Part shown: positions 56,410 through 60,923 of the stretch, piece after piece
Layout: every line of letters begins with the position of its first letter
Numbering within the stretch: position 1 is the first letter of the stretch
DNA from: Escherichia phage ECML-359
Sequence record: OL631482.1
Reading direction: 5' to 3' (one strand)
Length of the DNA stretch: 64,000 bases
Made by a program: the position numbers and the translations under genes
Notes under the pieces: generated by a model
Seen by the model: the letters and a program-made list of their open reading frames with translations, nothing else
Databases searched by the model: none
What the model was told of the DNA's origin: nothing

Positions 56410-57018
56410 TCACTTTAAGATGTTAATAACATGTTGAATGTTTTCAGTTGACATATGATTGTCAATGTAGGTATTCAATCCACCTACTTTAACGCTAAAT
56501 CCCACGTCTGTAAACTGTTTTACTATCTTTTGTTCAGTATTATACGCATGCACACGAATCTGACCATCACGACGTACATCAATCTGTTTTAATGTCTTGA
56601 TACGCTTGAACTTCACAATCAGATTGCTGCGGTCTTCTGAAATGCTCTTAAAGTCAATACCAATAGACAATAATTGCTCTTTGATATATTCTGCAGTCGC
56701 TTCCATTTCATCAGTCACACCGCGTTTTGTTCTTGTCTTCTTCACTTCCAGAAGGTCAGGATTATTTTCATTCGCCCACAGTTCAGCTGCATCCAGAATA
56801 AGGTCAACACCTTTTTCTGTAACCATCAAACCATCACCAGAAGCTTCAACATAGTTGTTATTCAACAATGTCTGCACGCTATCAATTGACGTGTTCTGCT
56901 GGCCTAAAACAACCTCAGGACGCACGAAGTTGTTTTTATATACAAACACCAGAGCATTAACATCAGTCTCATGTAGAGCGTTCTGGGAGCATTTAACGAT
57001 ATAATTTAGCTTGTTCAT
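56410..57018 (-). CDS. motA: MotA middle-transcription activator
   Basis: 202 aa; C-terminus resembles T4 MotA (...KQFTDVGFSVKV...STENIQHVINILK). Confidence 0.8.
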   Translation of the reverse strand: MNKLNYIVKCSQNALHETDVNALVFVYKNNFVRPEVVLGQQNTSIDSVQTLLNNNYVEASGDGLMVTEKGVDLILDAAELWANENNPDLLEVKKTRTKRGVTDEMEATAEYIKEQLLSIGIDFKSISEDRSNLIVKFKRIKTLKQIDVRRDGQIRVHAYNTEQKIVKQFTDVGFSVKVGGLNTYIDNHMSTENIQHVINILK

Positions 57019-57020
57019 AA

Positions 57021-57236
57021 TTATCCCTTAATAGATTTCATGTAATTTGATGCATATGATTGTACCACAGTACGTTTCATATGGGAAGTAGAAACAATAA
57101 CATCAATCGCTTGTTTACGTTCTTCTTTAGAATTCGCCAGTTTGAACATGTCAAAGTAATAATAGCAAGCTTCTTTATTAGATTTGAATTTAGCGTTAAT
57201 GTATTCTTGACCTTCATTCTGTTGTGCAGTAAACAT
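57021..57236 (-). CDS. hypothetical protein
   Basis: Start placed at Met5, preceded by the RBS TGGAGAATAAA; the ORF-track start is TTG. Confidence 0.5.
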   Translation of the reverse strand: MFTAQQNEGQEYINAKFKSNKEACYYYFDMFKLANSKEERKQAIDVIVSTSHMKRTVVQSYASNYMKSIKG

Positions 57237-57265
57237 TTTATTCTCCAAAGTTTTTGTGATTCATT

Positions 57266-57290
57266 GTGTAACTCAGTATGGAATCATTAT
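57266..57290 (-). repeat. conserved 25-nt early-leader motif, copy 3 of 4
   Basis: gtgtaactcagtatggaatcattat. Confidence 0.6.
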
Positions 57291-57316
57291 GCATCAGGTC
57301 AAGGGTCATGTACACT
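57285..57316 (-). promoter_or_regulatory. early promoter (GTGTACA -35, cATAAT -10)
   Basis: Minus strand reads aaaaaagtaGTGTACAtgacccttgacctgatgCATAATgattcc. Confidence 0.5.
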
Positions 57317-57338
57317 ACTTTTTTAAATATTTTAAAAT

Positions 57339-57362
57339 AAAAAAGGACCCCGAAGGGTCCTA
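57339..57362 (-). terminator. rho-independent terminator
   Basis: GGACCC-ttcg-GGGTCC hairpin followed by a T-run. Confidence 0.6.
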
Positions 57363-57458
57363 GTCTTTATCTATCTTATTGCCAATAAACATACCAACAA
57401 TCACACCTGCGATTGCCGCAAAAATACAAAGCAATGCAAACTCAACTCCAAAACTCAT
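57360..57458 (-). CDS. small hydrophobic membrane peptide (32 aa), translationally coupled to gene 52
   Basis: Hand-found ORF MSFGVEFALLCIFAAIAGVIVGMFIGNKIDKD with a GGAGG RBS; ATGA overlap with the gene 52 stop. Confidence 0.4.
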   Translation of the reverse strand: MSFGVEFALLCIFAAIAGVIVGMFIGNKIDKD

Positions 57459-58834
57459 AGAGCCTCCAAATCATTAAGGTATTCAGTTTTAACATCAGTT
57501 GTCTTCCAGTACTCATGCTCAGCTTTCTTAGCCTTTGCTTCGTCTGCAAGCTTCTTGGCTTCATCAGAGGTCATATGGTAGATGTTCATCGCCACTAACT
57601 TCTCTGCATAATCGCCATATATTTCACTCGCCTGGAGTTCCTCAATCAACTTCTTACGAGGTTTCCCCTGGATAACAACCTTACCATCAATCACTTCTTT
57701 AATAAAGAAGACTTTTGCCCGGGCCAGTTTAAACGCGGCTTCAGTTTCTTTAATCTTACTGTCAATTCGCACTTGAACATAAGTCTTACGGACATCCACG
57801 AAATCGCGAATCAGGTCAAGCGTGTTGGTGTATTCAGCCAGTTTGCCTTTATGATTAAGCACTGTTAAGTTCTGGGAGAGCTTCTCAATCAGACCAAAGT
57901 CTTTCATGATTTTCTCATGATTTTCTTCTTCGGTGCCATCCAACTTGTATTCTTTACGGAATTTAATCTTAAACCCAAAACCATGTTCGCCGCAGTTATC
58001 TTTCCAGGTGATAAAACCTTTCTCTTCCAGCGGGTCCAGGATTTTACTTGTGTACTTTTCCAGGTTCCATTGGACCGGGATTTCAGTAATTTCCATTTGG
58101 GTCCTGGACGTCATTTTGTATGTGCCATGAAGCTCATACTTACCAGGCTCTTCCAGCTCAACAACTTTACCACGGAATTCTGGATATTTTACTTTCGGAG
58201 CAACCGGTTCACGACCTTCCACGATAGCTTTAACAGCTTCCTTAACGTCCTGGAACGAATGAGGAAGGATATCAGTAGCAAAGCCAACAGCAATCCCAGA
58301 AGTGGCGTTAAGTAATACAGTAGGAATAACAGGAAGATAAAAAGCAGGAGGCTTATGTTCTTCATCAGGATGGACCGGAGCATATTCTGTATCCTTAAAC
58401 AAGTTGTAAAAGTTCTTTGAAACCCTTGCGAATACATAACGAGCCGATGATGCTTCTGGCACCATTCTGGAACCAAAGTTACCTTGCCCATCAAACATAG
58501 GATATTCATTTTTATATGTTGCAACCAGACCAGAAGTTGCTTCTTCCGCTGATGCTTCACCATGGTGATAACCATAATCAGCTACGCCACCTGCGATGGA
58601 TGCAACCTTATGGAATTTATTCTTATCACCACGTGCCAGGTCTAATGCTCTCGCCATAACAAATCTGTGAACTGGTTTAAAACCATCAATCATGTTTGGG
58701 ATGGCACGACCTTCCACAGTGTAGATAGCATATGACAATGCTTCCACATCAATAATGTCTTTTAGACTGCGTGGGTTAAGGGTCCCCATAGAATCACTGA
58801 ACTGTTTGGACATCATACTTAAAACGTCAGACAT
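57455..58834 (-). CDS. 52: DNA topoisomerase II medium subunit
   Basis: 459 aa with gyrase-A-like breakage-reunion motifs (...AIPNMIDGFKPVHRFVM...). Confidence 0.9.
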   Translation of the reverse strand: MSDVLSMMSKQFSDSMGTLNPRSLKDIIDVEALSYAIYTVEGRAIPNMIDGFKPVHRFVMARALDLARGDKNKFHKVASIAGGVADYGYHHGEASAEEATSGLVATYKNEYPMFDGQGNFGSRMVPEASSARYVFARVSKNFYNLFKDTEYAPVHPDEEHKPPAFYLPVIPTVLLNATSGIAVGFATDILPHSFQDVKEAVKAIVEGREPVAPKVKYPEFRGKVVELEEPGKYELHGTYKMTSRTQMEITEIPVQWNLEKYTSKILDPLEEKGFITWKDNCGEHGFGFKIKFRKEYKLDGTEEENHEKIMKDFGLIEKLSQNLTVLNHKGKLAEYTNTLDLIRDFVDVRKTYVQVRIDSKIKETEAAFKLARAKVFFIKEVIDGKVVIQGKPRKKLIEELQASEIYGDYAEKLVAMNIYHMTSDEAKKLADEAKAKKAEHEYWKTTDVKTEYLNDLEAL

Positions 58835-58842
58835 ATATCACC

Positions 58843-58983
58843 TTACCAGATTAACGAATGTACTGCCATTATAGCATCAGAAATAAAAAGCACAACCTGC
58901 ACTAACGCAAACACAACTCCGTAATACAGCGCCACCAATAAGGTAGCAAGGACTAACGAGTAGCCCAAGATTTTCTTAATCAT
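58843..58983 (-). CDS. small membrane protein (46 aa)
   Basis: Hand-found ORF MIKKILGYSLVLATLLVALYYGVVFALVQVVLFISDAIMAVHSLIW; overlaps the upstream ORF stop by 8 nt. Confidence 0.4.
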   Translation of the reverse strand: MIKKILGYSLVLATLLVALYYGVVFALVQVVLFISDAIMAVHSLIW

Positions 58984-59131
58984 TTTTATCCAATAATTTA
59001 AATAGTGATAAAACTGCTAATACACCTTGAGCTGTTGACTGCAGAAATACTGAAGTTTCACCAGTTATTAATGTTCCAACAAATAAAAATGACCAGCAGA
59101 AAAAAGCTACACCATGAACAAATTTATTCAT
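58976..59131 (-). CDS. small membrane protein (51 aa); possible ac homologue by size and position
   Basis: Hand-found ORF MNKFVHGVAFFCWSFLFVGTLITGETSVFLQSTAQGVLAVLSLFKLLDKND with a GAGGA RBS. Confidence 0.4.
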   Translation of the reverse strand: MNKFVHGVAFFCWSFLFVGTLITGETSVFLQSTAQGVLAVLSLFKLLDKND

Positions 59132-59211
59132 ATTTTCCTCAAGGACGTCCGAAGACGCCGGTTAATTTCAGATTATGACGATGCCATTGCATCACATGTT
59201 CGTTATGGAAA

Positions 59212-59385
59212 TTACTCATATATACCACACATTTTGCATAAGCGTTCAAAACAGATATACCCACCACTAAAGCACATAGTAACAGCAACTTTATCATTAA
59301 ATGGAGCACCAAAGGCTATAAAGGCTCCTGTAATAACAAATAGGGCTAAAACAAATAGGTAACCCATTGTAAAGAAATGTCTCAT
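59212..59385 (-). CDS. small membrane protein (57 aa)
   Basis: Start placed at the internal Met directly after the ndd stop; hydrophobic core [19 protein letters not shown]. Confidence 0.4.
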
Positions 59386-59386
59386 A

Positions 59387-59836
59387 TTAATAGCTCTGCA
59401 GAATGAATTTAAAGTTATCAGCAAGCATGCGATTCATTTCTGAAAGGGTCTGGCAATCAGAACTATGTGAGCGAGTGAACGCCATCGCAATTTGACCTTT
59501 ACCATAACCAGTTGTCAGAGGTTTCATTTTAGAAACTGGGACAAACAGGACTTCATAGATAACCCCATTGTTCGCCATTGTGCGAGACAGTTGAGAACGC
59601 TGTTTGCGGATGTGACTTAATACAGTGTCAAACCCTTGTTGTGAACGTTGGTTACCAACATAAAAACGTGCAGCAACAATACGTGATTCGCCTTCACCTT
59701 TAACCACGAAATAAAAACCTGGTTGAGTGATAGCTTCTTTAGTTGGGCGACCGGCAACATAATTACCATTATGGATATAAGCAACAGTGGTAGCACCAGC
59801 ATTCAGTACGTCACGACGGGTCATGTAAGTAGACAT
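59387..59836 (-). CDS. ndd: Ndd nucleoid-disruption protein
   Basis: 149 aa, similar to T4 Ndd (...LNAGAT...PGFYF...[28 protein letters not shown]...[36 protein letters not shown]). Confidence 0.8.
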
Positions 59837-59879
59837 ATTAATTTCCTCAGTAAGTTAAAGTTTTGTGCTCCAGTGGGGT

Positions 59880-59911
59880 CATTATACTCTGACCCCAAGA
59901 GTTTGTACACT
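59880..59911 (-). promoter_or_regulatory. early promoter cassette upstream of ndd
   Basis: Minus strand reads aaaatagtGTACAaactcttggggtcagagTATAATgac. Confidence 0.5.
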
Positions 59912-60254
59912 ATTTTTGTAGTTGTTCTAAAATAAATCCACTGGTGTAAAGGCTTGCATTATACAGACGGTCAAGAGACAACGAATCCAACCCATAAGCT
60001 TCACGAATTGCATTCACAACACTTTCATAACTTGTATAATAAACATCGCGATAATCGCGGTCCATAGTCATGCGGAACTTAATAAATTTATAGAAACCAG
60101 TTTCAGGGTCCTGATAGAATGCAAATTCAGCAGACATCAAATTTTTAAGGTTAACAGCTTTTGTGCCACCTGAATAACTTAAATCAAATGCTTCTGATAT
60201 GCTAATTTGTTTAAAGAACATAATGTTGCGATTACCAAAAAATACTTTAGACAT
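59910..60254 (-). CDS. hypothetical protein
   Basis: 114-aa ORF. Confidence 0.5.
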   Translation of the reverse strand: MSKVFFGNRNIMFFKQISISEAFDLSYSGGTKAVNLKNLMSAEFAFYQDPETGFYKFIKFRMTMDRDYRDVYYTSYESVVNAIREAYGLDSLSLDRLYNASLYTSGFILEQLQK

Positions 60255-60322: not shown

Positions 60323-60567
60323 TATTCTACATCAACTGCGTCATCCCACAAGTCAACTTCTTCTGATGATTCCATCAGTTCATCAACTGTGAAGCACTCA
60401 GTATTATTTTCAATTGCAAAACGTTTCTGATAAAAAGGATAATCCAAACAGTTTTCAGTGCGCACAGGACGCTCGCTGTTATCCATTAAAGGTGAAATGC
60501 GAATCAGTTGTTGACCATTACCCAGGACAAATTTTTCACCAACTGCAATGTCTTTAAAAAGTTTCAT
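60322..60567 (-). CDS. hypothetical acidic protein
   Basis: 81-aa ORF. Confidence 0.5.
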   Translation of the reverse strand: MKLFKDIAVGEKFVLGNGQQLIRISPLMDNSERPVRTENCLDYPFYQKRFAIENNTECFTVDELMESSEEVDLWDDAVDVE

Positions 60568-60770
60568 TGCTTAGCTCCATTCCAAATTACATCAACAACA
60601 GACTTCAAACCATTATCCTGGATTTGTGTGAACACTTCAGCAGCAATCCAGAGCTGGAAACCAATCATTGCAATGGCACCAATGAAAATCAGGATAATCA
60701 TCGCCACAATAAACTTGAACATAAAATCAAAGCGACGATTGGATTTCTGAAATTGTGAATTGTAATTCAT
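60564..60770 (-). CDS. hypothetical membrane protein
   Basis: Internal Met start; single TM segment FIVAMIILIFIGAIAMIGFQLWIAA. Confidence 0.45.
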   Translation of the reverse strand: MNYNSQFQKSNRRFDFMFKFIVAMIILIFIGAIAMIGFQLWIAAEVFTQIQDNGLKSVVDVIWNGAKQ

Positions 60771-60780
60771 AATATTATCC

Positions 60781-60897
60781 TCAAAAGAAATAGTTAAAGT
60801 AAACACGCACATGGTCAATCATAAAAACAATTGGGAAAATGCTCAGGACAACAAACAGTACAAACATGTTCCAAATGGCTTTAAGTAACTTTTTCAT
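60781..60897 (-). CDS. small hydrophobic peptide (38 aa)
   Basis: Hand-found ORF MKKLLKAIWNMFVLFVVLSIFPIVFMIDHVRVYFNYFF with a GGAG RBS, downstream of an early promoter. Confidence 0.35.
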   Translation of the reverse strand: MKKLLKAIWNMFVLFVVLSIFPIVFMIDHVRVYFNYFF

Positions 60898-60923
60898 AAT
60901 CATCTCCAGTAGTTGATAGGTTC

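Follow-up and report, generated by a model that had tools for sequence, protein, structure and literature searches.

Small hydrophobic-peptide genes around topoisomerase gene 52 in the T-even-like Escherichia phage ECML-359

The surroundings of topoisomerase gene 52 in Escherichia phage ECML-359 contain four very short, tightly packed reading frames of 32, 46, 51 and 57 aa, all of them predicted to encode hydrophobic peptides, and the locus raises the question of whether these are genuine genes and, if so, what their products would do in the infected cell. The locus was analysed within a window of 64,000 nucleotides (sequence record OL631482.1), which was found to derive from a Gaprivervirus-like T-even phage, with identities of 97.8% to TH41 and 97.1% to MN01. 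The preferred reading, to which a probability of roughly three in four is given, is that of an ordinary T-even early unit that carries four genuine small hydrophobic-peptide genes, the products of which would be accessory membrane modulators and the arrangement of which is cassette-like.

Coding status and translation of the four reading frames

The four ORFs were all found on the minus strand where the initial annotation had placed them, and the overlaps described there were recovered as well, namely the ATGA shared by the start of the 32-aa ORF and the stop of gene 52, and the 8 nt shared by the 46- and 51-aa ORFs. The hydrophobicity attributed to the peptides also held for all four, with GRAVY values between 0.82 and 1.78; this property alone is weak evidence for a gene, because 34 of the 206 six-frame ATG ORFs of 30–60 aa in the whole window reach a GRAVY value of at least 0.8. 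The frames proved to be conserved in other phages, with 81 records for the 32-aa ORF, 687 for the 46-aa ORF, 274 for the 51-aa ORF and 221 for the 57-aa ORF, and both length and frame are retained at 25–50% amino-acid identity across genera. The pN/pS values across the four ORFs range from 0.04 to 0.33 in their own frames and from 0.75 to 2 in the other two, a sign of purifying selection that for each ORF is confined to the annotated frame. An overlapping RNA element, as an alternative source of this conservation, was not found in an Rfam scan of positions 56900-60100, where the sole match lay over the terminator-like hairpin described below and, being sub-threshold (27 bits against 50), was taken as chance.

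A Shine-Dalgarno (SD) sequence had been claimed for each ORF. Strong sites were confirmed for the 32- and 51-aa ORFs, with anti-SD pairing energies of −9.3 and −6.2 kcal/mol, respectively, but those of the 46-aa ORF (−3.1 kcal/mol) and the 57-aa ORF (−2.1 kcal/mol) are weak and lie near the mean over all ATGs, −2.0 kcal/mol. The 57-aa ORF starts 1 nt past the end of the preceding gene and the 46-aa ORF starts 8 nt inside the preceding gene, positions that suggest translational coupling. The 32- and 51-aa ORFs would be translated from their own SD sequences, whereas translation of the 46- and 57-aa ORFs is probably coupled to that of the gene before them.

Gene order and peptide families

The unit contains, in order, ndd, the 57-aa gene, stp, ac, 52.1, gene 52 and the 32-aa ORF, an order that matches the annotated T4, RB32, VR7, VR25 and MN01 and would correspond to an ordinary T-even early unit closed by a terminator. 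An early-promoter-like element (59881..59909, minus strand, as are all features given here; AGTGTACA, 17-nt spacer, TATAAT) was located upstream of ndd by a consensus scan; the minus strand has five near-identical copies, this one included, and the element is the likely start of the transcription unit that runs from ndd to the 32-aa ORF. The end of this unit is assigned, from its sequence, to an intrinsic-terminator-like hairpin at 57344..57361 (AGGACCC-TTCG-GGGTCCT, followed by a T run), which was detected by a terminator scan and extends into the stop codon of the 32-aa ORF. The first gene, ndd (59387..59836), encodes the nucleoid disruption protein of 149 aa (PHROG 1102, E = 9e-60) and is annotated under that name in VR7, VR25 and MN01. 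Gene 52 (57455..58834) encodes the medium subunit of DNA topoisomerase II, of 459 aa (PHROG 551, E = 9e-202), and the records of its relatives (VR7, VR25, MN01, T4 and RB32) carry the same annotation.

The T4 genes ac and stp had been expected near this map position, and both were present. The 51-aa ORF (58976..59131; SD GAGG) is identified by sequence comparison as a homologue of Ac (acridine sensitivity/resistance), of the RB69/RB32/RB51 subtype. It matches PHROG 2501 with an E value of 2.9e-23, as does T4 Ac (E = 2.2e-25), it is 38% identical to T4 Ac in a BLASTP comparison (E = 3e-8) and about 78% identical to the annotated ac of RB51, and many of its tblastn records are labelled acridine resistance protein. 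Its pN/pS was 0.19 in its own frame and 0.75 and 1.99 in the other frames, with the frame control computed on gap-free codon columns. The two proteins are equal in length and share the SVF-Q-AQG core, the slot between stp and 52.1 and the 8-nt overlap with 52.1 (ATGATTAA in ECML-359), and G38 of T4 Ac, a glycine of this conserved core, aligns with G36 of the 51-aa ORF.

The 46-aa ORF (58843..58983), for which a comparison with T4 52.1 had also been proposed, corresponds by sequence to gp52.1 (DUF7396), since PF24129 was matched over residues 1–46 of 46 with 72.3 bits, above the gathering threshold of 27. It is 85% identical to T4 gp52.1 (PHROG 3595), which likewise has 46 aa and directly precedes gene 52, and it shares all invariant residues (L32, F33, D36, I38 and S43). 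The gene has a pN/pS of 0.21, was found at 36 of the 36 distinct loci examined, always immediately upstream of gene 52, and ranks with the best-conserved accessory genes in the subfamily.

The initial description of the set as entirely hydrophobic overlooked stp (59139..59219), a hydrophilic peptide of 26 aa (GRAVY −0.87) encoded inside the cluster, between the 57-aa ORF and ac (Pfam PF08133, 55.3 bits with a cutoff of 25; PHROG 6763, E = 2e-19; pN/pS 0.16). The ECML-359 peptide is identical to the JS98/VR25 variant and has the same length and neighbours as T4 Stp, with 20 of 26 residues identical; T4 stp directly follows ndd, whereas in ECML-359 the 57-aa gene comes between the two. In the T4 record, stp is annotated as an activator of the host PrrC anticodon nuclease, acting on EcoprrI.

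The 57-aa ORF (59212..59385) starts 1 nt past the ndd stop, shares 8 nt with stp and matches PHROG 5941 over residues 1–57 of 57 (E = 1e-22), and is thus a full-length member of a widespread family of hypothetical proteins that includes Shfl2p268, dhaeg_269 and a "transmembrane protein" of Serratia phage X20. Members of this family are likewise located directly after ndd, with the start abutting the ndd stop; the tblastn homologues always lie beside ndd, and 33 protein clusters of 57–61 aa were found on T4-size contigs. The pN/pS of the ORF was 0.33 in its own frame and 0.77 and 0.94 in the others, and the residues conserved in the family are Y9, G20, G26, P28, E47, R48 and G54. A 70-aa version with a TTG start, the form in which the frame is entered in the ORF list, was rejected, as all homologues begin at the ATG beside the ndd stop. 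A zinc or disulfide motif formed by the four cysteines in the C-terminal half was also rejected, as these cysteines are a feature of the ECML-359 version and are not conserved in the family.

Membrane character, cassette variation and possible function

The initial prediction of a single transmembrane helix in each peptide was upheld for the 32-aa ORF (57360..57458), whose sequence (GRAVY 1.35, with one 20-residue uncharged run at residues 7–26) indicates a single span, but it was not fully confirmed for the other three. AlphaFold2 monomer models, from which the membrane topology of such short hydrophobic peptides is not decidable, gave two helices for the 57-aa protein (residues 2–24 and 31–52, pLDDT 76.8), a predicted two-helix hairpin, and one helix of 44 residues for gp52.1 (residues 2–45, pLDDT 96.9). 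The helix modelled for gp52.1 is some two membrane spans long and agrees with neither a hairpin nor a simple single span; hydropathy analysis of the same peptide gave a hydrophobic stretch of 42 residues. T4 Ac was modelled as two helices with ESMfold (10.1101/2025.06.30.662393), and ECML-359 Ac, with one clear hydrophobic segment and a weaker second one, probably also forms two. Pfam and NCBIfam scans of the 32-, 51- and 57-aa peptides returned only sub-threshold matches to generic hydrophobic models, and a PDB sequence search with each of the four peptides or its profile gave no match at E ≤ 10; no functional hint came from a Pfam or PDB relative.

We infer that the small ORFs are translated in ECML-359, early in infection, and that their products insert into the host inner membrane, where, through host targets, they would modulate membrane functions of the cell in an accessory and dispensable way. 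A reported phenotype was found only for T4 Ac, and none for the families of 52.1, PHROG 5941 and PHROG 16377, the last of which includes the 32-aa ORF. Expression of T4 ac in E. coli causes acriflavine sensitivity, whereas deletion of ac, as well as the G38R substitution, results in acriflavine resistance of T4 (10.1101/2025.06.30.662393). An effect through impaired AcrAB-TolC efflux was proposed in the same preprint, and this assumption is repeated in PMC13250531. The acriflavine phenotype is established for T4/T2; by analogy, ECML-359 Ac, at only 38% identity, may confer acriflavine sensitivity in the same way, and modulation of the host membrane by this protein is plausible. In the CRISPRi-ART supplement, T4 motA.1, 52.1, ac, stp and ndd are classed as "Not Fit" and gene 52 as "Fit", while the main text of that study and the HIDEN-SEQ preprint make no mention of these genes, and a viable T4 deletion spanning gp52.1-rIIB has been described (PMC9712115). 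As no fitness effect could be measured on the laboratory host when the T4 homologues were knocked down, any role of these peptides would be conditional.

The small genes behave as cassettes that T-even phages gain, lose and exchange through recombination at short conserved junctions, namely the 3' end of ndd, stp and the start of 52.1. Cassette variation was observed across 36 distinct loci. The 57-aa gene is a precise 166-nt indel with a 7-nt repeat (ATATGAG) on either side, and JS98 carries a 52.1'/'stp fusion scar. T4 lacks the 57-aa gene, as do MN01, VR25 and VR7, the closest relatives with an annotation; the order 57-aa gene, stp, ac, 52.1 occurs also in Tequatrovirus Shfl2. The set had been considered larger than that of T4, and this is correct for the 57-aa cassette, which by sequence comparison is the sole addition, but not for the remainder, since ac with 51 aa, 52.1 with 46 aa and motA.1 with 49 aa, the last joined to gene 52 by an ATGA overlap, occur in this order in T4 and RB32 too.

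The initial suggestion of host-membrane modulation or superinfection exclusion is a generic one, and none of the present results speaks for superinfection exclusion. Patchy presence and absence with swapping of cassettes is typical of genes engaged in conflict, and the peptides might act between phages or against host defence, in superinfection exclusion, in lysis timing (in the manner of Imm, Sp or RI) or by blocking or triggering membrane-bound defence effectors. Their membrane character and expected early expression, their dispensability on a laboratory host and their position next to stp, a known defence-interaction peptide (EcoprrI/PrrC), are all compatible with such a role. However, no similarity was detected to a PHROG with an annotation of this kind or to a Pfam or PDB entry, the literature search turned up no experiment, and the universal occurrence and strong conservation of gp52.1 are not what a fast-evolving conflict gene would show. 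A conflict role is considered unlikely, and the more general reading of accessory membrane modulators is retained.

The position after gene 52

The 32-aa ORF matches PHROG 16377 with an E value of 1.7e-9 over residues 1–26, is identical to the MN01_00229 ORF and has the lowest pN/pS of the four (0.04). Its strong SD, GGAGG, lies within the last codons of gene 52, and every one of its tblastn records is at the end of that gene. A 34-aa peptide of JS98 matches the same family with an E value of 1.9e-20, and in phages of the JS98 and SP18 types PHROG 16377 is found at this position as well. In T4 this position is filled by MotA.1 (49 aa, PHROG 3487, "predicted periplasmic protein"), which shares with the 32-aa ORF the ATGA overlap, hydrophobicity and an intergenic region before motA as the next element, but which has a 37-residue uncharged run, whereas the 32-aa peptide is shorter and has one span. 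Homology between the two was rejected, as alignment of the families PHROG 16377 and 3487 with hhalign gave a probability of 0.4%; on sequence grounds, the 32-aa ORF is a positional analogue of T4 motA.1 and not a detectable homologue.

A hydrophobic ORF was found to start at the gene 52 stop or within 9 nt of it at 35 of the 36 distinct Tevenvirinae loci, with an NTGA overlap in 33, and EcS1 was the one locus with no peptide ORF following gene 52. The peptides in this slot, of 23–59 aa, belong to at least seven mutually unrelated sequence types. The surroundings of gene 52 might then be an array of interchangeable micro-membrane-protein cassettes, driven by recombination and directed at different host inner-membrane machines, in which the slot after gene 52 is kept filled. 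This reading is considered decidedly improbable. If it were true, Ac aimed at efflux would be its first example, and selection in the post-52 slot could act on the presence of a co-translated membrane peptide and not on its sequence, for reasons that might include membrane tethering or regulation of the topoisomerase or replication complex, or control of the gene 52 mRNA at its 3' end.

A narrower proposal ties the peptide to the topoisomerase itself, with synthesis coupled to that of gp52 and with tethering or regulation of gp39/52/60 or of the replication complex at the membrane. The near-constant occupancy of the slot and the NTGA overlap speak in its favour, as do the placement of the SD in the conserved final codons of gene 52, the purifying selection on most peptide types and the label "membrane-associated" given to gp52 in the RB32 record. 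However, the diversity of unrelated peptide types is hard to reconcile with one conserved binding partner, EcS1 manages without any such peptide, and in T4 knock-down of motA.1 is without fitness effect whereas knock-down of 52 has one; the proposal is regarded as very unlikely. Finally, the notion that the four ORFs are chance frames in AT-rich intergenic DNA, or coupling spacers whose amino-acid sequence is irrelevant, could draw on the abundance of short hydrophobic ORFs in the window, on the missing good SD of two of the four and on the omission of at least one of them from several GenBank annotations of relatives, but it is effectively refuted by selection confined to the annotated frame in all four, by the retention of frame and length across genera and by the genetic phenotype of the ac homologue in T4.

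An ordinary early unit with four genuine small genes thus remains the preferred reading, and the status of these small ORFs is settled by the frame-specific selection test. The practical value of the analysis lies in annotation hygiene, as stp, ac, 52.1, the post-52 peptide and the 57-aa gene are missed or mis-started by gene callers and in a first-pass reading. Most of these ORFs are annotated in GenBank records of near-identical phages, and the gene content, the gene order and the membrane character of the products belong to the standard T4 annotation; they are already catalogued, with nothing new among them. Beyond the T-even phages, a comparison may be drawn with AcrZ of E. coli, a 49-aa single-span partner of AcrB; no sequence relation to it was detected, and the likeness is one of analogy only, in that a tiny peptide of the inner membrane modulates a large transporter of the host.

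Coding status and assignment of the small genes

The four minus-strand ORFs of 57, 51, 46 and 32 aa around topoisomerase gene 52 have the coordinates and lengths reported in the initial annotation, and both overlaps described there, the ATGA shared by the 32-aa ORF and the gene 52 stop and the 8 nt shared by the 46- and 51-aa ORFs, were confirmed. Hydrophobicity alone is unconvincing as a sign of a gene, since 34 of the 206 six-frame ATG ORFs of 30–60 aa in the window have a GRAVY value of at least 0.8. Coding status was settled by conservation and substitution pattern. The reading frames are conserved in related phages, with 221, 274, 687 and 81 phage records retrieved by tblastn for the 57-, 51-, 46- and 32-aa ORFs, respectively, and pN/pS values (Nei-Gojobori counts against moderately diverged relatives) were lowest in the annotated frame: 0.33 for the 57-aa ORF (+1, 0.77; +2, 0.94), 0.19 for the 51-aa ORF (0.75 and 1.99), 0.21 for the 46-aa ORF (0.81 and 1.65) and 0.04 for the 32-aa ORF (+1, 1.95; +2 not computable, with zero synonymous differences). 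A further ORF of 26 aa gave 0.16 (2.38 and 1.20). On this pattern, all of them are protein-coding genes under purifying selection, and the probability that they are real genes of their assigned families was put at roughly 95%.

The 46-aa ORF matches Pfam DUF7396 (72.3 bits, cutoff 27) and PHROG 3595, shares 85% identity with T4 gp52.1 and is gp52.1, which was present in all 36 distinct syntenic loci gathered from GenBank phages and IMG/VR contigs. Five residues (L32, F33, D36, I38 and S43) do not vary among 32 clusters, and the AlphaFold2 model is a single continuous helix of 44 residues (pLDDT 96.9), about twice a membrane span. The invariant D36 falls midway along the hydrophobic stretch, an uncommon feature in a plain membrane-spanning segment. 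The 51-aa ORF hits PHROG 2501 (E 2.9e-23), the same profile as T4 Ac (2.2e-25), shows 38% identity to T4 Ac (E 3e-8) and about 78% to the annotated RB51 ac gene, and is identified by homology as Ac. Its hydropathy profile has a strong hydrophobic segment and a second, weaker one; for T4 Ac, two helices meeting at D26-A27 were reported (10.1101/2025.06.30.662393). The glycine at G36 aligns with G38 of T4 Ac and is kept, and the G38R change in the latter makes T4 acriflavine-resistant (10.1101/2025.06.30.662393). The 26-aa ORF matches PF08133 (55.3 bits, cutoff 25), agrees with T4 Stp at 20 of 26 residues and is Stp; the peptide is hydrophilic (GRAVY −0.87). This gene (59139–59219, minus) sits inside the cluster and is missing from the initial gene list; in the ORF list it is present just as the 3' end of a TTG-started 57-aa ORF (59139–59312).

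Layout, transcription and translation of the unit

Along the minus strand, ndd (59836–59387, 149 aa) is followed by the 57-aa ORF (59385–59212), with its ATG 1 nt past the ndd stop, by stp (59219–59139), which overlaps it by 8 nt, by ac (59131–58976) after a 7-nt gap, by 52.1 (58983–58843), which overlaps ac at ATGATTAA, and, after an 8-nt gap, by gene 52 (58834–57455, 459 aa) and the overlapping 32-aa ORF (57458–57360). No sizeable gap interrupts this string, a hairpin rich in G+C and followed by a T run (57361–57344, minus) overlaps the stop codon of the 32-aa ORF, and an early-promoter-like element (59909–59881, minus; AGTGTACA, 17-nt spacer, TATAAT) lies upstream of ndd. Taken together, and judged from consensus matches, ndd to the 32-aa ORF looks like one early transcription unit. 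The element is one of five near-identical minus-strand copies in the window (61540–61512, 60951–60924, 60321–60293, 59909–59881 and 57314–57286), each ahead of a small gene block and composed of an A-rich tract, AGTGTACA, a 16–17 nt spacer and TATAATG; the copies look like the early promoters that recur in T-even phages and may act as recombination sites. Across its whole length, the 2.7-kb stretch shares 97.8% identity with Escherichia virus TH41; identity to MN01, VR25 and VR7 (Gaprivervirus, Tevenvirinae) is 94–97%, with gaps. Upstream of ndd, further small predicted membrane genes occur at 60564–60903 (minus), an 84-aa ORF (60564–60818) and a 40-aa ORF (60781–60903), so the hydrophobic-peptide neighbourhood reaches past the interval first delimited; VR7 annotates ndd.3 and ndd.4 at their place.

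Anti-Shine-Dalgarno pairing, computed for each start, was strongest for the 32-aa ORF and ac (−9.3 and −6.2 kcal/mol), followed by 52.1, stp and the 57-aa ORF (−3.1, −2.8 and −2.1 kcal/mol, respectively), the mean of all ATGs in the region being −2.0 kcal/mol. Of the Shine-Dalgarno sequences ascribed to the four ORFs, those of the 32-aa ORF and ac are thus strong and those of 52.1 and the 57-aa ORF weak; translational coupling is probable for 52.1, stp and the 57-aa ORF, because these weak starts adjoin or overlap the gene ahead of them. The single transmembrane helix claimed for each peptide agrees with the one uncharged run of 20 residues in the 32-aa peptide and less well with the 57-aa protein, which is predicted with helices at 2–24 and 31–52 (AlphaFold2, 31-sequence alignment, pLDDT 76.8) and a conserved G-x-P loop between them.

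Cassette exchange and the slot after gene 52

The 57-aa ORF matches PHROG 5941 over its full length (E 1e-22). This family comprises only 33 clusters among 5.8 billion proteins, nearly all of 57–61 aa, with three weaker matches being shorter; long contigs with members are of T4 genome size, and in the syntenic loci the gene always lies directly after ndd. MN01, VR25 and VR7 differ from the window here by an exact 166-nt indel corresponding to this gene, and a 7-nt direct repeat, ATATGAG (59381–59387 and 59215–59221, minus), borders the indel. The repeat stands at both ends because the 57-aa gene and stp both start with ATGAG, an arrangement that suggests gain or loss via microhomology. Between ndd and 52.1, the loci compared carry one to four units, which come from PHROG 5941, stp, Ac (PHROG 2501), PHROG 9347 (VR7ORF281c type) and one or more other families. 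PHROG 9347 occupies exactly the window's ac position in VR7 and VR25, and the sequence flanking the swap is unchanged on either side, with the stp 3' end and GAGGAAAATATG before it and the 52.1 start after it. JS98 has both an Ac-like 49-aa ORF and a 53-aa PHROG 9347 ORF, between which (about 1228–1376 of its collected locus, L013) lies a decayed 52.1 5' fragment that has lost one A and is joined, at GGAGTAAT, to the 3' portion of an stp of the T4 type. The fusion is a recombination scar and shows that stp-X-52.1 cassettes are exchanged via conserved flanks.

At the place of the 32-aa ORF, T4 has motA.1 (49 aa), also with an ATGA overlap with gene 52. The 32-aa ORF, to which the annotated MN01_00229 is identical, belongs to PHROG 16377 (JS98/SP18 type) and not to the MotA.1 family (PHROG 3487), and profile-profile comparison of the two families gave a probability of 0.4%. 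Of the 36 distinct Tevenvirinae loci, 35 have a hydrophobic ORF whose start coincides with the gene 52 stop or lies no more than 9 nt from it, the exception being EcS1. The start overlaps the stop as ATGA or TTGA in 33 loci, and in two Mosigvirus-like loci the start codon is TTG. These ORFs, of 23–59 aa, represent no fewer than seven sequence types unrelated to one another, most under purifying selection, the 23- and 26-aa types having too few differences to tell. Position is thus kept without sequence conservation, which is mildly intriguing. The slot may simply be a good place for a gene to land, since a Shine-Dalgarno sequence is already there, or its occupants may have a function linked to gp52; the unrelated sequences, and the absence of a phenotype when motA.1 is knocked down, argue against an obligatory gp52-partner role.

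Probable role and relation to T-even phages

The small genes probably share one compact expression unit with ndd and the gene of the topoisomerase subunit. They encode very hydrophobic helices, predicted to be accessory early inner-membrane peptides that modulate host membrane functions conditionally; the odds on membrane-protein modulation as their mechanism are about even. T4 without ac is acriflavine-resistant, plasmid-borne T4 ac sensitised E. coli to acriflavine and ampicillin, and the authors proposed that Ac inserts in the inner membrane and impairs AcrAB-TolC efflux (10.1101/2025.06.30.662393), an assumption repeated in a 2026 paper (PMC13250531). The experiments concern the T4 homologue, and this putative last step is the authors' proposal. 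No phenotype reports for gp52.1, the 57-aa protein or the 32-aa peptide were found in the literature. In the CRISPRi-ART screen, knock-down of T4 motA.1, 52.1, ac, stp or ndd had no fitness effect and that of gene 52 had one; a T4 deletion from gp52.1 to rIIB is viable (PMC9712115).

Small-gene annotation in GenBank relatives is inconsistent: stp and ac are absent from the MN01 record, stp from VR7, the post-gene-52 peptide from VR25 and JS98, the 57-aa gene also from JS98, and stp and 52.1 from Shfl2, and in ESCO10 the 57-aa homologue is labelled 'sliding clamp'. The initial observation was essentially right, with two details overstated and one gene missed, and its interpretation was partly right. 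The gene order is ndd-stp-ac-52.1-52-motA.1 in T4 and RB32, whereas it is ndd-57aa-stp-ac-52.1-52-32aa in the window, where ac and stp both lie between ndd and 52.1, as anticipated from the T4 map. The set had been described as larger than in T4 and entirely hydrophobic; only the 57-aa gene is extra, the cluster otherwise being of T4's size, and the Stp encoded within it is hydrophilic. Tequatrovirus Shfl2 has 57aa-stp-ac-52.1 in the window's order, and the feature corresponds to the already known T-even ac/52.1/post-52 membrane-peptide cluster with a common ndd-adjacent cassette.
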